From Deltaproteobacteria bacterium (lineage in GTDB: Bacteria; Desulfobacterota; JADFVX01), in NCBI GenBank assembly GCA_029860075.1, contig JAOUBX010000001.1:89965-153964 (forward strand): DNA of 64,000 nucleotides. Direction: 5' to 3'. The notes beneath the pieces were generated by a model that ran no database searches, was not told where the DNA came from, and saw only the letters and a list, made by a program, of their open reading frames with translations. The position numbers were made by a program, and so were the translations under genes. Positions 5,049 to 12,402 of the stretch are shown here, one piece after another. Numbering within the stretch: the stretch's first letter is position 1; each line of letters begins with the position of its first letter.

Positions 5049-5960
5049 TTAAAAATCGAGCGGGCTTCCGGTTTTCTTGATGGTTGTCGTCTTGATTGTA
5101 TGGGTGTAAATCATGGTCGTTCGTATGTCACTATGCCCCAGTAGCTGCCGGATTGTCCTGATATCGTAATTAGCCTGGAGCAGATGACTGGCAAAACTGT
5201 GCCGGAAGGTATGAGCACTTACCCTTTTTATAATGCCTGCCTGCTTAACGGCTCTTTTCACTGCTTTATTGACGTGGCTTTCGTGCAGGTGATATTGTCG
5301 CAGTTCTTCTGTCTCGGGTACTTTTGTCAGATTAATTGCGGGGAAAAACCACTGCCGGGGCAATTCTTTAGCACAGTTTTTGTATTTTTTCTCAATGGCA
5401 TTGAACATAAAAGCACCATCATAGGCAGCCTTTTCGTCTTCCTGGAGTACCTTCTTTACGTTTTCAATCTAACCCGTTAGTTGAGGATAAATACTTTCCG
5501 GTAAAGGTACCGTCCTGTCCTTTTGTCCTTTCCCGTCATGGATTGTAAGAATCGCTGTATCAAAATTAAAATTGTTGATGCCTAATTTAAGACATTCAAA
5601 AAGGCGTAAGCCGCAACCACAGAGTAGCTTGACTACCAGATCATAAGGGTGTTCAAGAGAATCGAGTACAAGGTTGACTTCTTCTTTTGATAAAACGACT
5701 GGAATATAAGGTTTTTTTTTGCTCTTACATTGTCTTTATGCTGGCCAAAGTCTTTTTTGATAATATGCTTATAAAAAAAGAGCAATGCATTAAAAGGCTG
5801 GTTTTGTATTGATGAACTACGGAAGATTGCATTAATAATGGGGCAAAAGTGAATTATAAGAACTTGTTTATCAAAAAAAGAGGCTTTGTTTTTTTTAAAT
5901 TGAGAAATCAGGCAATATATTCTTGAAAAAAGGTAATGATTGCGATAAAGATAAGTTATT
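5049..5960 (-). pseudogene. intI: Integron integrase (IntI-family tyrosine recombinase), disrupted.
   Basis: Minus-strand translation aligns with IntI. It gives NALLFFY...PYIPVVLSKEEV...LLCGCGLRLFECLKL...DGKGQKDRTVPLPESIYPQLTG(TAG)IENVKK...WFFPA...HTFRHSFASHLLQANYDIRTIRQLLGHSDIRTTMIYTH. The IntI-specific extra segment (WFWVFA-like WFFPA plus the following helix) is present. The gene is interrupted by an in-frame TAG near 5475 and by a frameshift in a 9-T homopolymer near 5711-5719. No canonical start codon precedes the N-terminus, which is degraded. Confidence 0.75.
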
Positions 5961-6040
5961 AAATTTAATTATTGGTTGCGGTAAGGGGAATTCTACTAAT
6001 AGGGTTTTTCTACAGCCTCGTTAGCTGATAAAACAATTAA
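5960..6040. other. Putative attI region between intI and the first cassette.
   Basis: The sequence tttttctacagcctcGTTAGCT near 5990-6020 resembles the 3' half of the downstream attC site (ttttcctacagactcGTTATATT at 10185-10206). It lies where attI is expected, immediately 5' of intI on the opposite strand. Confidence 0.35.
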
Positions 6041-6051
6041 GTGAGTAAGAT

Positions 6052-6699
6052 ATGAAAACAAATGGTTGGGTAGAAATAATTAAGTCCATTAAAACTCCAA
6101 TTAGCTTACTTGCTCTAATCACCTTGATCGTCGGGTCGTTACTACATTTCAATCCAGATCCAGTAAGTAGATGGGCGGCAATATTTTTGCTTTTTATAAT
6201 CACTATATTTACTATCGCATACGCCATCAAGTATAAGTCGCTATTCCCAACTGAAATAAGATCGATCTGGAGTAAAAATGATCTTCCATTAGAAGAGAGC
6301 GAAAGAGACTCATGGTTAGGTAAATGGAACTGTCGTTGGACATTTAGAGAAAAAGACAATCAGCTTAAGCCATATGTGGATGATATTATTGAAATCAATG
6401 AAATTGGTTGTAACAGTGGTGAATTGACTGGTATGGGCTTTTCTTCCTATATTGAAGGGTCAAAATATTTTCTCAAAGGCCGAGTGTCAAATAAAAGAAT
6501 TGCACACATATTTTATACTAGTTCTGCGGAAACAGCCGGATTGTCAGGCATGGTTATTTTAAGTCGTCCCCCTATTGGTGATATCACAGGATGGTGGCTT
6601 GGTGCAGGGCGTAAAGGTGGAGATATTGGTGGAGGGGTAACTATGGAACGGCATGAGAACAACCTTGATTTCAAGATTAAAAAGTACGAAATCAGCTAA
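6052..6699 (+). CDS. Cassette ORF: hypothetical membrane protein with two N-terminal TM helices and a Gly-rich C-terminal domain.
   Basis: 215-aa ORF starting 30 bp after the putative attI, followed directly by an attC-like hairpin. AT-rich codon usage is typical of integron cassettes. Confidence 0.55.
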   Translation: MKTNGWVEIIKSIKTPISLLALITLIVGSLLHFNPDPVSRWAAIFLLFIITIFTIAYAIKYKSLFPTEIRSIWSKNDLPLEESERDSWLGKWNCRWTFREKDNQLKPYVDDIIEINEIGCNSGELTGMGFSSYIEGSKYFLKGRVSNKRIAHIFYTSSAETAGLSGMVILSRPPIGDITGWWLGAGRKGGDIGGGVTMERHENNLDFKIKKYEIS

Positions 6700-6707
6700 G
6701 TCTTTTT

Positions 6708-6777
6708 AAATAACAGCAGCTATCCAATGGGTCAAGTTGACGCCTAAAAGCGGCGCAACTTACCCATAACGTTATGT
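6708..6777 (+). repeat. attC-like recombination site (ATAAC ... ATAAC|GTTAT).
   Basis: Imperfect hairpin: AAGTTGACGCC pairs with GGCGCAACTT with one extrahelical base. It is flanked by ATAAC (6710-6714) and GTTAT (6771-6775) and sits between two same-strand ORFs. Confidence 0.5.
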
Positions 6778-6794
6778 GTAAATAAGGAGCAATC

Positions 6795-7211
6795 ATGTCG
6801 AAAATGCAAAGCCATTTGGAAATGATTCAGGGGATAATAAATCGATTGTCTCACAATTCTTTCCTACTAAAAGGATGGACTGTAGTGCTAGTTTCAGCCC
6901 TCTTTGCTCTCGCAGCAAAAGACAAGAATGCACTATTCATCTACCTGTCATACTTTCCTTCTATTGCATTTTGGTGTCTTGATGGATACTTCCTGTGGCA
7001 AGAAAGACTTTTTAGAGCTTTATACGATAATGTACGTGTAATGAAAGAAGAAAATATCGATTATTCAATGAATGTCAAAAATGCTGACATTTCGGAGATT
7101 ACTTGGTCAAGTGCTTTTCTTTCAAAAACACTCATTATGTTTCATGGTGTAATTCTCGGTTCTATAATCATTGTAATGCTTCTAACCTTAAAAGGAGGGT
7201 GTAATGGCTAG
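6795..7211 (+). CDS. Small 2-TM protein, SLATT-like (DUF4231-like) putative membrane effector.
   Basis: 138 aa with two predicted TM helices (GWTVVLVSALFALAA and LIMFHGVILGSIIIVMLL) and a conserved soluble segment between them. The stop overlaps the start of the downstream TIR-like gene (ATGGCTAG). Similarity to SLATT is my inference from architecture, not a verified alignment. Confidence 0.5.
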   Translation: MSKMQSHLEMIQGIINRLSHNSFLLKGWTVVLVSALFALAAKDKNALFIYLSYFPSIAFWCLDGYFLWQERLFRALYDNVRVMKEENIDYSMNVKNADISEITWSSAFLSKTLIMFHGVILGSIIIVMLLTLKGGCNG

Positions 7212-7614
7212 AAAAGTTTTTTTTAGTTTTCATTATGCAGATATAATGAATGCAAACATTGTTAGAAATTCTGGACAATTTAAACCAACAGCTGAAACTG
7301 GATTTTATGATAAGTCCCTTTGGGAGGATGCAGAGACTAAAGGAAAGACCGCTATTCAAAAATTAATAGACGATGGTCTTCATAACACTAGCGTTACATG
7401 CTTTCTTCTCGGAGAAAAAACATATGCCCGTCCTTACTGCAAGTATGAGCTTGAAAAAAGTCTCGATGAGAAAAAAGGTATTCTTGGGATATTATTACCA
7501 AATCAAGAAAAACATGGCCCAAAATGGATTAGTAAATATGGAAGAGTATACAGTTGGGACCATAGTAAATTTGCTGATTGGGTTGAGAAAGCTGCAAGGG
7601 ATGCTGGGAGATAA
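7204..7614 (+). CDS. TIR-like domain protein (DUF1863/MTH538-type TIR fold).
   Basis: The N-terminus MARKVFFSFHYAD matches the kVFISYshxD beta-A strand signature of TIR-like domains. The later VTCFLLGEKTYARPYCKYELEKS segment matches the VivliSxnxxxSxWvxxEl helix region. Start overlaps the upstream 2-TM ORF by 8 nt. Confidence 0.6.
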   Translation: MARKVFFSFHYADIMNANIVRNSGQFKPTAETGFYDKSLWEDAETKGKTAIQKLIDDGLHNTSVTCFLLGEKTYARPYCKYELEKSLDEKKGILGILLPNQEKHGPKWISKYGRVYSWDHSKFADWVEKAARDAGR

Positions 7615-8482
7615 CAGTAATAAAAACACTACAGGGGTTGATGGGGTCGGACAGGACTTTAACCTGCTAGATATGTTGCCGGTAACGGCGTACGGTCCGA
7701 CCCCATTGCAGCATGCGTTGATAACAAAAGAAAAGGGGGCACTCAAATTGAAGATTCTATATGCCGAAGATGAGGAAAGACTCCAAAAGTCTACTGCGAT
7801 GCTAATGAGTTGTTGGGGGTATGATTTTGACTTGGCTTCTAATGGTCAAGATGTGGTTGAATATGCCAAAGCAAATGAAGGAGGATATGACCTTTGCCTG
7901 ATGGATGTTGATATGCCCATCATGAATGGTTGCGAAGCAACGGAAATGATACGTCAAAAGTTTCAATATTTTCCTATTATGGGGCTATCAGGAAATCCGC
8001 AATATAAAGATAAATGTCTTGAAATCGGTATGGATGATTTTTTGTCAAAACCCTGTTCTCCAGACGAACTTCTTGCTAAAATCAATGAGCTAACAGTCAA
8101 GTTTGAAAAACTATGCTTTAAAGATGAAACTATTTTTTTGAAAAAGGAGATGCCCATGGACCAGCAACATGCACAAGAATTGAGAGAATTAAAAAAGCAA
8201 GATTTGATTAAAGTTAAATTTGATGATGTAAGCGGTTCAGAGGTTGTTGTTCATAAAAACATTATCAACAAAATTGTTCAGGATTTTAACATCAAAAAAC
8301 AGTTTGTTTCGACATTCATAAACCGCAACCCCGAGAAACCAACCAAGTGTATCCTCTTTGGCAATAATTGCCGTATGCCACAAATGTATCTTGATGGTGA
8401 GGATTATGAAGGCGAGTTGCAAGCAGAAAACGAAGAAGTAAAAAAGTACCCATCCATGATTTTGAAAGCCGAAGAAAAGTAA
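7601..8482 (+). CDS. Response-regulator receiver (REC/CheY-like) domain protein with an uncharacterised ~170-aa C-terminal domain.
   Basis: LKILYAEDEE...DLCLMDVDMPIMNGCEATEMIRQ...IMGLSGNP...GMDDFLSKP is a canonical REC domain (acidic pocket, phospho-acceptor Asp in LMDVDMP, conserved Lys in SKP). Start is uncertain: 7601 overlaps the TIR gene end by 14 nt; 7673 is the alternative. The six-frame ORF's 7373 start lies inside the TIR gene and is unlikely. Confidence 0.6.
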   Translation: MLGDNSNKNTTGVDGVGQDFNLLDMLPVTAYGPTPLQHALITKEKGALKLKILYAEDEERLQKSTAMLMSCWGYDFDLASNGQDVVEYAKANEGGYDLCLMDVDMPIMNGCEATEMIRQKFQYFPIMGLSGNPQYKDKCLEIGMDDFLSKPCSPDELLAKINELTVKFEKLCFKDETIFLKKEMPMDQQHAQELRELKKQDLIKVKFDDVSGSEVVVHKNIINKIVQDFNIKKQFVSTFINRNPEKPTKCILFGNNCRMPQMYLDGEDYEGELQAENEEVKKYPSMILKAEEK

Positions 8483-8647: not shown

Positions 8648-8768
8648 CTAACAAATCAATAAAGAGGGAGCACCAAACATGCGTACTTGATTTTAGTATC
8701 TTACTCCGCTTAAACATTGTCGGTGGTTTTGGGCTGGTTGCCCCGCATGTTTGGCACCCCCTTATTGT
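8648..8768 (+). repeat. VCR-like attC site, copy A of a repeated ~110-bp element.
   Basis: CTAACaaatcaATAAAGAGGGAgcaccAAACATGCGTACTTGATTTT ... GCCCCGCATGTTTGGcaccCCCTTATTGT. The terminal arms are inverse complements with bulges and the centre is variable. It lies between the REC-gene stop and the next cassette ORF and is nearly identical at its ends to copy B at 11613-11721. Confidence 0.55.
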
Positions 8769-8787: not shown

Positions 8788-9243
8788 ATGAAAGAATGCC
8801 CAACATTTGAAAATGCAATCCAGTCCTTTGAAGGATTTTTGAAATCAGAGAATAAATCCCAGGCGATTCAATGGTTATTTCGTGAAGATATCACAACTTA
8901 CAAATTAAAAATGTGGATCAAAATCCCTTATTTTGAAAATCACTGGGAGGTAGCAAAGAAAATTTACCAATTGGGGTTAGATCGTGGGTTCGGTATCAGA
9001 ATCATCCAGATTGGTTCTATTAATAATGATTCTTTATGCTACATCTGGTTGCCACAAGATGAATTAGATATGGACCAATCAATGATGGACCATAATCTGA
9101 AATTAAGTATTTCTCAAACAAACCGGGGGATTACTCCGATTAAAAATAGCGGTTTCTGGAATTTAATAAAATGGGTAAACTCCAAGAGGGGCTACAATTA
9201 TTTAGAAAGTGATATGCCAAGTAGAAAATCATTGATGGTATAA
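8788..9243 (+). CDS. Cassette ORF: hypothetical soluble protein (151 aa).
   Basis: ORF begins 20 bp after the attC-like repeat, on the same strand as all other cassettes. No recognisable domain. Confidence 0.5.
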   Translation: MKECPTFENAIQSFEGFLKSENKSQAIQWLFREDITTYKLKMWIKIPYFENHWEVAKKIYQLGLDRGFGIRIIQIGSINNDSLCYIWLPQDELDMDQSMMDHNLKLSISQTNRGITPIKNSGFWNLIKWVNSKRGYNYLESDMPSRKSLMV

Positions 9244-9392
9244 CAATGAAATACACACCAACCTGGAACCCTGCACTTTTTTGTATGCTTTTGGTAGATT
9301 TGGAGTGCATCATTTTTTCCGCACTGGCTGGAAGGTCCCAGGCGGGTGATTTAGATGCTAGCCTTACGAAATTAAAGAATGGAGAATAATAG

Positions 9393-10001
9393 ATGAGAAC
9401 GACCCTAATAGTCTTATTTTTAATAGCTATGCTCATTTCTTCGACTCAAACATTTCGGCACTTTTATGTGAAGTTTATTCATCCAACTGGCTCGGTTTTG
9501 GACCAATTTAAAACAGAAACTGAATCAGATATCGAAAAAGCAAAAAGTATAGATGATCTTGTTACACTTTATCGTAAGGCAAAAGATGAAATTAAAAAAT
9601 ATGAATCAGACTCCAGCAATCCGAAAATTGAACACAAACGTCGAAAAAATATTGAACCGTATAAATCTGAAATTCAAATTAAAGGGGAAATACGATCAAG
9701 AGAATACGATCAAAATCAACTGTTCAAATTATGCTTTTATTGGCTTTGTGGATTGCTTAGCACACTTATAGGCATCTTTGCTTTCAAGAAAATTAATAAT
9801 TGGTTGGGACTTTCAGGAATAATTGTAGGGTTTTCCGAAATGCTATGTTGGACAAGTCCACTATTTCACAATCGTCTACTTAGTCAACAATATGAATACT
9901 TGTTGAATTATAAATTATTGTTCTCGTTTGTAACTATGGTTTTCCTGGCATCACTTTGGCTAATAGTTGAAAAGAGGGACTTTTTAGCAGAAAAAGGCTA
10001 A
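9393..10001 (+). CDS. Cassette ORF: hypothetical membrane protein with an N-terminal TM, a charged coiled middle and three C-terminal TM helices.
   Basis: 202-aa ORF with RBS-like gaatggagaat upstream, followed by an attC-like hairpin. Confidence 0.5.
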   Translation: MRTTLIVLFLIAMLISSTQTFRHFYVKFIHPTGSVLDQFKTETESDIEKAKSIDDLVTLYRKAKDEIKKYESDSSNPKIEHKRRKNIEPYKSEIQIKGEIRSREYDQNQLFKLCFYWLCGLLSTLIGIFAFKKINNWLGLSGIIVGFSEMLCWTSPLFHNRLLSQQYEYLLNYKLLFSFVTMVFLASLWLIVEKRDFLAEKG

Positions 10002-10044
10002 AAAGGTGCTTGAAAACGATGCAGAAACCAGCACGTTTCAGCTC

Positions 10045-10206
10045 AAACGTTGAAGCTGTAGGAAAACCCCTTTTGAAGTTTTTTTTTGGAAAAACCACAA
10101 AAATGACAAATATTTAATTCAATAAAATCAGCATGTTAGGAAATCGAAAAAATTATATTTTCGTAAATTTTTATTAAATTTGAGTTTTCCTACAGACTCG
10201 TTATAT
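10045..10206 (+). repeat. attC-like site with a long AT-rich loop.
   Basis: AACGTTGAAGCTGTAGGAAAAC (10046-10067) pairs with GTTTTCCTACAGACTCGTTAT (10185-10204). The 3' arm ends in GTTAT as in the other sites. A smaller hairpin (GCTTGAAAACG/CGTTTCAGC) lies just upstream at 10009-10044. Confidence 0.4.
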
Positions 10207-10255
10207 TGTTTTTATAAGATACTTAAGTTTCTCGCTTTGAGTGGAGGTATAACAT

Positions 10256-10468
10256 ATGGAAACATTTATTAATATTTTTGTCAGTTGGTTCCCAATGATC
10301 CTTTTAATTGCGGTCTGGGTACTTATGGTGAAAAAAATCAGGCCAACACAAAAAGAGTCTGTTTCTTTAATGAGGAAGCAAGCTGAACTCTTAGAACAGC
10401 ATCTTCAACAGGCCGAGCGAATAGCAAGTGCTCTCGAAAAAATCTCTCAAAAATTGAATTCAGAATGA
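10256..10468 (+). CDS. Cassette ORF: small single-TM protein with a C-terminal coiled coil (70 aa).
   Basis: Strong RBS (gagtggaggtataacatATG), a hydrophobic helix (FPMILLIAVWVLMV) and an amphipathic tail. No family assignment. Confidence 0.45.
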   Translation: METFINIFVSWFPMILLIAVWVLMVKKIRPTQKESVSLMRKQAELLEQHLQQAERIASALEKISQKLNSE

Positions 10469-10575
10469 GTATATACAAAGAAACAATATGACCAGTCACT
10501 AAACCGGACCGTACACCCACGTTGGCTCTTGCCAATGGCTCCGGCTTGGTCGATTGGCTTTACGTTAGAGCTCAA

Positions 10576-10965
10576 ATGAAAAAAACAATTAGCATAGTTT
10601 CAATTTTTCTTTTGGTAATTTTTATCGGATATGCAGTTATTAAAATTATTGGGTCAGCTGGTAATATTAATAACCCCGATGCTCAACTAGAAGCAATGCT
10701 ACCAGAGGAAAGAGAATTCTGTAAAAAAGTCCTATGGCAGATTAAACCTGAATCTAGTGTAAAAGATGTAATAACATTACTTGGTAAGCCATCTCGTGAT
10801 TTAAAACTTAAAAAGAATTGGTGGATGAAATTAAACGGAAAAAAGGACAGAGTGGGCGTTTATTTTACCTTGTCAGGCTTTGCAGAAGAGGTTGTTTTAG
10901 ATGGAGGGCCAGGCAGATTCTACTATAGAAGAAAAGTATCAGATCATGTGAGTAAAAACTTCTAA
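10576..10965 (+). CDS. Cassette ORF: small secreted or membrane-anchored protein (130 aa from MKKTISIV).
   Basis: Signal-peptide-like N-terminus MKKTISIVSIFLLVIFIGYAV. The six-frame ORF extends to 10522, but that Met has no RBS and the 10576 Met gives a typical signal peptide. The stop TAA sits inside the CTAAC inverse core of the next attC. Confidence 0.5.
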   Translation: MKKTISIVSIFLLVIFIGYAVIKIIGSAGNINNPDAQLEAMLPEEREFCKKVLWQIKPESSVKDVITLLGKPSRDLKLKKNWWMKLNGKKDRVGVYFTLSGFAEEVVLDGGPGRFYYRRKVSDHVSKNF

Positions 10966-11038
10966 CATTCTCATTCACCAGATCGTCACCTTCGCCTTTT
11001 CGGGCTCCGGTGCTAACTGGTGATGAAGGGTGTTAGGA
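10961..11038 (+). repeat. Canonical attC site (inverse core TCTAAC ... core GTTAGG).
   Basis: 78-bp imperfect palindrome with TTCACCAG/CTGGTGA(tg)AA arms and an inner ATCGTCACC/GGTGCTAA pair with bulged bases. It begins with CTAAC overlapping the ORF stop codon and ends with GTTAGG, as in classical integron attC sites. Confidence 0.65.
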
Positions 11039-11054
11039 ATACAAAGTAAAAGAG

Positions 11055-11549
11055 TTGGAACAATTCAAATATAGCCATACACTAGAACTGTCGGAGTCTG
11101 AATATGCCGATATATACGGCATTTACTCAAGGCGTTCACGTCCTTGGCGACGGTCTTTGGTCGTCATTGGTGGTGTCGCTTGTTTGTTTTGGACTTACAC
11201 GCTTCTTTTAGGAATCGTACTACTCGGTTTGGCATGCTTGGCTGTTTTCGAACCACGCATGGTACCCTTTGGTGCGTCATCGATATTCAAGGGTCACGCT
11301 CATTTGCATCAGCCACTCACTTTTGGAGTTTCCGATGTGAAACTATCGGTTTCGGGATCCAATTTGAATTTATATTGTGATTGGTCAAATCTCGCAGTGT
11401 GGTATGAACGCGACGGCTGGTTACGTGTTTCACCGCATGGTATGCAAGATTTGTATTTTCGTGTTTCAGATTTACAGGAGAAAGCGGTGTATAATAGCGT
11501 CTTAGAATTGTGCCGGAAACACGGGAAAGAGTTTAATAGTAAGGATTAA
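11055..11549 (+). CDS. Cassette ORF: membrane-associated hypothetical protein (YcxB-like or bacterial PH-like, tentative).
   Basis: 164 aa with two TM helices after a basic RSRPWRRS stretch and a C-terminal beta-rich domain. The stop is followed by CTAAC. Confidence 0.45.
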   Translation: MEQFKYSHTLELSESEYADIYGIYSRRSRPWRRSLVVIGGVACLFWTYTLLLGIVLLGLACLAVFEPRMVPFGASSIFKGHAHLHQPLTFGVSDVKLSVSGSNLNLYCDWSNLAVWYERDGWLRVSPHGMQDLYFRVSDLQEKAVYNSVLELCRKHGKEFNSKD

Positions 11550-11553
11550 TTTC

Positions 11554-11721
11554 CTAACAAATTGACCGTTAAAACGCGGTTGTGTTTTAACGTCGGCTTA
11601 CTTGAACCAGCAAATAAAGAGGGACCGCCAAACACGCGTACTTGATTTTCAGCGTGTCGTCCCGCAGTAACATTGCGGTAATTTAAAGGCCTCGGCCCGC
11701 ACGTTTGGCGGCCCCTTATTG
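11554..11721 (+). repeat. VCR-like attC site, copy B, carrying a ~47-bp mini-hairpin insertion.
   Basis: Same terminal arms as copy A (AAATAAAGAGGGAccgcCAAACAcGCGTACTTGATTTT ... GCCCGCACGTTTGGcggcCCCTTATTGT). Between the CTAACaaat motif and the repeat body sits the insertion tgaccgTTAAAACgcggttgtGTTTTAAcgtcggcttacttgaaccag, a perfect 9-bp stem-loop that is absent from copy A. Confidence 0.55.
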
Positions 11722-11757
11722 TTGTTGTTATATTTTTGTTACCCATAAGGTAAGTAA

Positions 11758-12402
11758 ATGAATTTGGAACTCCATCACTTTTTCATTCTTGTTAAGCCTG
11801 AGGCAGAAGTCGCGGAAAAATTGATATCAATTGGGATGTGCGAGGGAACAAGAAACAAGCATGAAGGGCAAGGAACTTCAAACAGGCGTTTTAACTTCTC
11901 AAACGGGACTCTAGAGCTGTTATGGGTTCATGATGAAGAGGAGGCAGTTAACGGTCCAGGGAAGGGTATGTGTTTAGCAGAGCGGACTAAAAATACAAGC
12001 GCTTCACCATTTGGGGTTATTTTTAATAGAAAGGATAATTGTAGTCAAGAAATGCCATTTGAAGGATGGAAGTACGAACCTGTCTATTTTCAAGCGCCGT
12101 GGGCTTTTCATATTGGGGCTAACTCGAAGAGCATAGTTGAACCACTCTGTGTATATATGCCATTTATTGAGCCTGGAATGTCAAAAGGACTTGATGAGAA
12201 CGAAACATTTAAGTCTATAACTCAAGTAAAGGTACATACTCCATCGGAACCAATGTCGAATGTTCTGGATATTGTGAAAAACGCTGAAAGGTTAACCATT
12301 GTAAATGGTAAAGAACATTTAATAGAAGTTACTTTCAATGAGAATCATATGGGTTGTTCACAGGATTTCAGGCCAGATCTTCCGCTGGTGGTTAATTGGT
12401 AA
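11758..12402 (+). CDS. Cassette ORF: glyoxalase/VOC-like (Glyoxalase_3-like) domain protein.
   Basis: LHHFFILVKPEAEVAEKL...HEGQGTSNRRFNFSNGTLELLWV resembles the glyoxalase-like domain family. This is the last same-strand small ORF before the convergent giant gene. Confidence 0.45.
   Translation: MNLELHHFFILVKPEAEVAEKLISIGMCEGTRNKHEGQGTSNRRFNFSNGTLELLWVHDEEEAVNGPGKGMCLAERTKNTSASPFGVIFNRKDNCSQEMPFEGWKYEPVYFQAPWAFHIGANSKSIVEPLCVYMPFIEPGMSKGLDENETFKSITQVKVHTPSEPMSNVLDIVKNAERLTIVNGKEHLIEVTFNENHMGCSQDFRPDLPLVVNW

Follow-up and report, generated by a model that had tools for sequence, protein, structure and literature searches.

Gene organization at the locus

The subject of this work is an integron cassette in a 64,000-nucleotide (nt) stretch of contig JAOUBX010000001.1 (GenBank assembly GCA_029860075.1, positions 89,965 to 153,964), from the metagenome-assembled genome (MAG) of an uncultivated deltaproteobacterium; we refer to this whole stretch as the window and give all positions in its own numbering. 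In a cassette array of the window, open reading frame 1 (ORF1), which encodes a predicted membrane protein of 138 amino acids (aa) identical to NCBI OEV42_00430, overlaps by 8 nt ORF2, which encodes a 136-aa TIR-domain protein, and a gene for a REC-domain protein follows downstream (Table 1). An initial annotation, made from the sequence alone, had joined these three genes into one translationally coupled module carried in an integron cassette, and regarded it as a candidate new defence or abortive-infection system. The present analysis, which establishes the gene anatomy, the family membership, the conserved pairing and the cassette boundaries, retains ORF1 and ORF2 with the lengths, positions and overlap initially described, and detaches the third gene. 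We propose that positions 6772–7723 constitute a two-gene integron cassette for type V Thoeris, with a thsF-like gene first and a translationally coupled thsB gene second, and give this reading a probability of about 0.88. A strong Shine-Dalgarno sequence, AAAGGAGGG, is located just 5' of the ORF2 ATG.

Table 1. Positions of the predicted type V Thoeris cassette and of associated integron features in the window
Feature	Position	Strand	Evidence
Integron integrase pseudogene	5049–5790	-	Frame translation: HTFRHSFASHLL...LLGHSDIRTTMIYTH, interrupted by stop codons
attC of the preceding cassette; its R' GTTATGT (6772–6778) is the start of the thsF-thsB cassette	6711–6778	+	Imperfect inverted repeat, fold
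thsF-like effector gene, 138 aa	6795–7211	+	PADLOC PDC-M50A, E 2.7e-52; 47% identity to P0242; conserved cytosolic motif LDGYFLWQERLFRALYD
thsB gene, 136 aa, predicted short TIR sensor and signal synthase, E82	7204–7614	+	PF08937, PADLOC ThsB1, 6LHY/9B7D
attC-like site between thsB and the REC gene, AGATAAC ... 17-nt inverted repeat ... GTTGATA	7610–7723	+	Repeat, fold z = -3.2
REC-domain protein, 244 aa from TTG 7748, separate cassette	7748–8482	+	Response_reg E 3.9e-22, residues 3–113

ORF1, a predicted three-helix membrane effector

No Pfam or NCBIfam family matches ORF1, which is matched by the PADLOC candidate model PDC-M50A. The hydropathy profile contains hydrophobic windows at residues 23–43, 47–62 and 107–135, and the AlphaFold2 (AF2) model, with a predicted local distance difference test (pLDDT) score of 92, contains three long helices at residues 3–43, 53–81 and 111–133. 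ORF1 is thus predicted to have the three membrane helices of a type V Thoeris effector and not the two transmembrane helices of the initial annotation. The SLATT-like character proposed there holds for a small membrane effector with a SLATT-like way of working, but does not extend to membership of the SLATT family, since neither ORF1 nor any of 28 homologues matched Pfam SLATT families at E ≤ 10 and the two-helix core of that family was not recovered in ORF1.

The ORF1 family is strongly conserved and comprises 1874 homologue clusters, distributed over at least 580 species. Among its invariant residues are R17, K26, D63, Q69, E70, R71, R74, D78, R81 and H117, all of which are present in ORF1 by definition, as ORF1 is the first sequence of the family alignment.

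ORF2, a short ThsB

The identification of ORF2 as a TIR protein was borne out by several matches, namely to Pfam ThsB_TIR (PF08937, E 1.8e-18), to the PADLOC models ThsB1 (E 7.9e-39) and PDC-M50B (E 1.5e-35), and to the Bacillus cereus ThsB structures with Protein Data Bank (PDB) codes 6LHY and 9B7D (E 2e-23; approximately 45% similarity to 6LHY). The segment YCKYELEKS had been noted as containing a candidate catalytic glutamate and, in fact, KYELEKS aligns with RYEIMKS of B. cereus ThsB, with Glu82 of ORF2 opposite the glutamate of that motif. We take the latter to be Glu85 of B. cereus ThsB, which is reportedly the catalytic residue, and Glu82 to be its equivalent; ORF2 is therefore a ThsB-type TIR with a predicted catalytic glutamate, as expected for a type V Thoeris. 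In comparison with B. cereus ThsB, ORF2 is a shortened form, with approximately 55 residues missing from the stretch that links the TIR core to the C-terminal WV motif.

The closest relatives of ORF2 with long genomic contexts (79–80% identity) are, in three of the four contexts examined, partners of a SIR2-STALD ThsA in type I Thoeris operons, and TIR proteins 75–78% identical to ORF2 are paired with ORF1 homologues in two other loci (L009 and L044). A protein still closer in sequence (P0128, 82% identity; L181–L183) was found on short contigs, with no ThsA or ThsF gene adjoining it; its gene may be a stand-alone thsB or a single-gene cassette.

Relation of the pair to type V Thoeris

Type V Thoeris was described as a ThsB TIR protein associated with an effector, ThsF, annotated as DUF2270 (PF10028) (Yirmiya et al., 2025, bioRxiv 10.64898/2025.12.03.692087). 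The system of Bacillus thuringiensis DAR 81934 protects Bacillus subtilis, infection leads to the production of 3' cyclic ADP-ribose (3'cADPR), added 3'cADPR causes toxicity, and defence is abolished by the Tad1 sponge (Yirmiya et al., 2025). Since HMMER gave no connection between ORF1 and PF10028, the link to type V was tested by sequence identity.

The TIR sequences in the accessible part of Table S1 of that study were compared by BLAST with those of the ORF1-family loci. Two TIR proteins labelled there as 'DUF2270 - Type V' have counterparts beside ORF1-family genes: IMG 2709405279 is 100% identical to the TIR protein of L077 and IMG 2700921483 is 99.3% identical to that of L076, with 54 and 25 nt, respectively, separating the TIR gene from the ORF1-family gene. 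Apart from TIR genes, the operon of L077 contains the ORF1-family gene alone, and in L076 none of the immediate neighbours is matched by PF10028. A second bridge is P0242 (141 aa), from the B. cereus group, which was found by searching with an ORF1 homologue encoded on a Bacillaceae plasmid. The product of its upstream neighbour is identical, in 251 of 251 residues, to the validated ThsB of B. thuringiensis DAR 81934, and its position agrees with the IMG gene number of the validated effector, which is that of ThsB plus one. P0242 aligns with ORF1 with 47% identity over 124 residues (E 9e-40) and is matched by PDC-M50A (E 1.8e-48). Because ORF1 is related in this way to the neighbour of a TIR protein identical to a validated ThsB, we consider it, on sequence identity, to be a ThsF homologue. 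By the same comparisons the PADLOC candidate PDC-M50 seems to be the same system as type V Thoeris; a literature search on the name 'PDC-M50' returned nothing. The initial annotation took the combination of TIR, membrane and REC proteins as undescribed; the pair of a TIR and a membrane protein is, however, known both as PDC-M50 and as the ThsB–ThsF pair validated by Yirmiya et al. (2025), and the proposal of a defence module in an integron cassette is sustained for these two genes.

Two plasmid-encoded proteins closest to the B. thuringiensis ThsB (H1 and H2) were also considered as a bridge to type V and were discarded, as they have no adjacent effector; the plasmid TIR peptides had no match among the entries listed in the accessible part of Table S1.

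Conservation of the pair in other genomes

We surveyed the neighbourhoods of ORF1 homologues in 80 loci from different species (L001–L080), out of the at least 580 species with a match. In 55 of the 80 loci the ORF1 homologue had a same-strand TIR gene no more than 300 nt away, downstream of it in 47 and upstream in 8; in 4 further loci a TIR gene was located elsewhere in the flanking DNA. The adjacency observed in the window, with its 8-nt overlap, is therefore kept across taxa. The close homologues of ORF1 (84–87% identity) form a two-gene unit with a TIR gene every time, in flanks that differ from one locus to another: a radical SAM protein and a methyltransferase, hypothetical proteins and SLFN_AlbA_2, or a beta-lactamase and a VWA-TIR protein. 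The TIR lineages with which the family as a whole is paired are very diverse, and occasionally the partner is of SLOG type. The expectation that the trio would be conserved elsewhere was thus borne out for TIR and ORF1 and not for the REC gene.

A TIR neighbour was not detected in the remaining 21 of the 80 loci (for example L041, L050, L052 and L024). Among the neighbours in such loci are a 5-hmdU DNA kinase domain (two loci), SLOG/LD_cluster proteins and a radical SAM protein, which could be alternative partners of the ThsF-family effector.

In plasmid pHRM2a of D. autotrophicum HRM2 (L101, 58234–63638), the lincosamide-resistance cassette lnu(F) and one hypothetical gene are followed by the gene of a ThsF homologue (61.5% identity to ORF1) and then by a TIR gene, apparently placing a resistance cassette and a type V Thoeris pair in one array on a mobilizable plasmid.

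Cassette boundaries

The cassette begins at the R' site of the preceding attC, a site with two bulged bases whose bottom strand folds with z = -2.8. The likeness of the window to the related cassettes L093, L097 and L104 starts at, or within a few bases of, the sequence GTTATG(C/T)GTAAA, and further upstream the sequences are unrelated.

On the other side of the pair, the perfect 10-bp hairpin noticed in the initial annotation was found at 7643–7652 (GGGGTCGGAC) and 7695–7704 (GTCCGACCCC), with 42 nt between the arms. This hairpin is the core of a 17-nt inverted repeat, 88% complementary (7641–7657 and 7690–7706), the bottom strand of which folds better than 200 of 200 shuffled sequences. The comparison with an independent assembly (L092) is informative in this respect. 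L092 carries the same 215-aa gene, ORF1 and ORF2, is identical to the window through position 7629, and leaves the window sequence at position 7630, 15 nt past the ORF2 stop codon (L092 1685–1722), where it continues as ACATAAC-CAATC-ATTCAACCCGACCGC, a canonical attC start (R''/L'') complementary to GTTATGT. In L097 the pair is likewise followed by a canonical attC, with a bulged stem, an R'' site (GCATAAC) complementary to the GTTATGC start of its own cassette, and the R' site GTTAGGT. The pair in the window thus lies between two attC sites: its 5' boundary has the GTT crossover, and its 3' end has an attC of the pair's own, although an atypical one. The divergence of L092 indicates that the site following ORF2 in the window is a population variant or a rearrangement; it may have been rearranged. 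The sequence immediately 3' of ORF2 is a recombination boundary and not a junction within an operon.

The REC gene is a separate cassette

The third protein does have a REC domain, as initially annotated; the part that follows residue 113, with nothing recognizable in Pfam or NCBIfam, comprises approximately 130 residues and not the approximately 170 residues first reported. A start at ATG 7601, which gave the 14-nt overlap with ORF2 and a 60-bp junction, was rejected, since it adds an N-terminal extension of 49 aa read through the hairpin. In a survey of 62 metagenome loci encoding REC homologues, the 15 full-length proteins (45–71% identity) all align from residue 1 of the protein starting at TTG 7748 and begin with MKI or MRI. 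On the basis of this alignment the start is most likely TTG 7748, which leaves between ORF2 and the REC gene a spacer of 133 nt, within which the attC-like hairpin is located.

The DNA upstream of the REC homologues is unrelated to the window, and in five of them (L115, L118, L119, L120 and L122) directly 5' of the gene there is an attC R' site, GTTCGGC, and after it a Shine-Dalgarno sequence; these two observations indicate that the REC gene is a cassette of its own. The C-terminal domain of the REC protein occurs in 0 of the 80 ThsF loci, only 1 of which has any REC domain, approximately 1.8 kb away, and a TIR or ThsF gene occurs in 0 of the 62 REC loci. The REC gene is an independent cassette, functionally unlinked to the ORF1–ORF2 pair, and its inclusion in the module has to be abandoned. 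The REC family (L110–L127) is in its own right a response-regulator-like protein that circulates as an integron cassette.

Proposed mechanism

By analogy with the published type V system, ThsB would sense phage infection and its TIR active site, with the intact Glu82 of ORF2, would convert NAD+ into a cyclic ADP-ribose signal. This signal would bind the conserved charged cytosolic part of ThsF, formed by the N-terminal helix and the LDGYFLWQERLFRALYD segment, the latter present in ORF1, and signal-bound ThsF would act as a ring-shaped homo-oligomer. The three-helix protein would then breach the membrane, and the infected cell would be killed or arrested before phage release, that is, by abortive infection. 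We infer the trigger, the identity of the signal, the oligomerization and the membrane damage from the published system.

The signal is most likely 3'cADPR. This molecule is favoured because the nearest relatives of ORF2 adjoin the SIR2-STALD ThsA, the 3'cADPR receptor of type I Thoeris. The occurrence of ORF2-like TIR proteins beside both ThsA and ORF1 homologues matches the published observation that one TIR cluster may serve several effector types (Yirmiya et al., 2025).

Points against the type V reading and alternative explanations

Several observations weigh against the reading of the pair as a type V Thoeris cassette working through 3'cADPR. HMMER did not match PF10028 to ORF1, and the best value in its family was E 4.2, in 1 of 29 members, so that the DUF2270 annotation by which type V is described was not reproduced for ORF1. 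P0242 has no HMMER match to PF10028 either, and for this reason the failure is not counted against the type V membership of ORF1; the DUF2270 label would instead reflect remote homology or an annotation based on representatives. The site at 7610–7723 is atypical, having no bulged bases and a poor R' (GTTGATA), and the intI gene is a pseudogene. Lastly, added 3'cADPR elicited no response from the validated type V variant of Bacillus sp. 1NLA3E (Yirmiya et al., 2025), which makes the identity of the signal less than certain.

This last observation is an argument for a two-gene Thoeris that uses another signal, be it 2'cADPR, canonical cADPR, another ADPR derivative or some further molecule. The published TIR clusters mix several effector types, and ORF2 is a shortened ThsB with approximately 55 residues fewer than that of B. 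cereus; the proximity of its nearest relatives to SIR2-STALD ThsA argues in the opposite direction, and we regard a different signal as unlikely. Another alternative would make the TIR protein itself the effector, depleting NAD+, with ORF1 as a membrane sensor or anchor. NADase effectors are known among bacterial TIR proteins, and this possibility was conceded for the unverified types (Yirmiya et al., 2025), but the family matched here belongs to a verified type: the TIR protein of that type makes a signal on its own, and its effector becomes toxic when 3'cADPR is added; furthermore, the association of the ORF1 family with diverse TIR lineages and occasional SLOG-type partners is what would be expected of an exchangeable effector. 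We consider such an inversion of roles very improbable.

The cassette could also be a silent or decaying passenger, its genes perhaps unexpressed, as the state of intI and the atypical attC after ORF2, unlike the canonical one in L092, might suggest. ORF1 and ORF2 are nonetheless intact, with good ribosome-binding sites, ORF1 retains all the family-invariant residues (though by definition, being the first sequence of the alignment), and the cassette is second in the array, near attI and the promoter region; a passenger state seems to us improbable. The original proposal, in which the three genes form one operon and the REC protein is the phospho-switch of a TIR and two-transmembrane-helix suicide module of a new type, draws on the adjacency of the genes on the same strand and on a long ORF (7373–8482) that runs from within ORF2 into the REC gene, in which ATG 7601 would overlap ORF2. 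The start of the REC homologues at the equivalent of TTG 7748 and their unrelated upstream DNA, the attC-like hairpin in the spacer, the absence of co-occurrence in both surveys, the divergence of L092 shortly after ORF2, and the five REC homologues directly preceded by GTTCGGC all speak against it, and we regard it as the least probable of the explanations considered. The reading as a type V Thoeris pair in its own cassette is the one carried forward below.

Comparison with known defence systems

With type V Thoeris the pair shares the two-gene composition, a ThsB-type TIR protein and a protein of approximately 135–141 aa with three membrane helices, the 47% identity of ORF1 to the effector of the validated B. 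thuringiensis system, and TIR lineages that overlap those of the published type V list. It differs in gene order, the effector gene coming first, which is the commoner arrangement among the 80 loci, whereas the validated Bacillus operons have the reverse order. It differs also in having a short, 136-aa ThsB, in being carried by an integron cassette, and in belonging to an uncultivated deltaproteobacterium, where it is known from sequence. Both proteins match PADLOC PDC-M50, to the first model of which P0242 is matched as well; PDC-M50 is, however, a computational candidate with no mechanism attached.

Type I Thoeris, composed of a SIR2-SLOG ThsA and ThsB, shares with the pair a ThsB lineage, given the 79–80% identity of ORF2 to ThsB proteins located beside SIR2-STALD ThsA, and probably the signal, but its effector is a SIR2 NADase and not a small membrane protein. 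In type VII Thoeris (ThsB and the SLATT effector ThsH) and in the SLATT effectors of cyclic oligonucleotide-based antiphage signalling systems (CBASS), a nucleotide signal also activates a small membrane-spanning effector. ORF1 departs from these in its lack of a Pfam SLATT match (E ≤ 10) and in its three, instead of two, hydrophobic helices, and the signal of type VII is canonical cADPR. BRiCs are two-gene integron cassettes that confer phage resistance (Kieffer et al., bioRxiv 10.1101/2024.07.02.601719) and, like the cassette described here, some combine a ThsB homologue with a partner other than ThsA; that partner has approximately 300 aa and another fold, and BRiCs belong to the mobile integrons of clinical bacteria.

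We regard the pair as one more ordinary example of a known system, not as a system of a new kind. Its particular features are modest: it is a type V system from the environment, it is carried by an integron, and its short ThsB belongs to a lineage otherwise tied to type I. We lean towards the view that a ThsB lineage that elsewhere serves ThsA was recombined with ThsF in a single two-gene integron cassette. If this is true, it would constitute natural evidence that one TIR signal is read by both the ThsA and the ThsF effector class, that the two classes are exchanged as modules, and that integrons spread type V Thoeris among environmental bacteria. The main value of the result is one of annotation, as the genes are to be named thsF and thsB (type V Thoeris, formerly PDC-M50) and not as a new system of TIR, two-transmembrane-helix and REC proteins. 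It adds an environmental integron-borne case to a defence type validated so far only in Bacillus, whose effectors belong to a very widely distributed family, with 1874 protein clusters and representatives of at least 580 species. The pair is also an example of how effectors are exchanged around a conserved ThsB lineage; none of these points opens a new question.

Integron setting and remaining cassettes

Upstream of the cassette array, on the minus strand, frame translation revealed the remnant of an integron integrase gene (intI) at approximately 5049–5790, where the source record calls no gene. Its C-terminal catalytic region is recognizable through HTFRHSFASHLL and LLGHSDIRTTMIYTH; it is considered a pseudogene because it contains in-frame stop codons and its N-terminal part is missing. 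Downstream of this remnant, small ORFs on the same strand are spaced by imperfect inverted repeats that resemble attC sites, and these two elements together confirm the integron setting proposed in the initial annotation. An attI-like GTTAGCT is located at approximately 6015, near intI, itself present only as a pseudogene.

The seven remaining cassette ORFs (6052–6699 and 8788–12402), of 70–215 aa and with hydrophobic segments in several of them, gave no PADLOC match and no Pfam match above threshold.

Two long attC-like inverted repeats are present at 8658–8768 and 11613–11722, with arms 89–92% identical (AATAAAGAGGG...CCCCTTATTGT). Neither has the usual AAC/GTT at its ends, an indication that they belong to an unusual class of attC or represent some other repeated element. 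The attI-like core CTACAG(C/A)CTCGTTA occurs twice, at 6005–6019, beside the integrase remnant, and at 10196–10210, in the middle of the array, and the AT-rich regions upstream of the two cores are weakly similar; the second core may be the remnant of a second attI or mark the join of two arrays.

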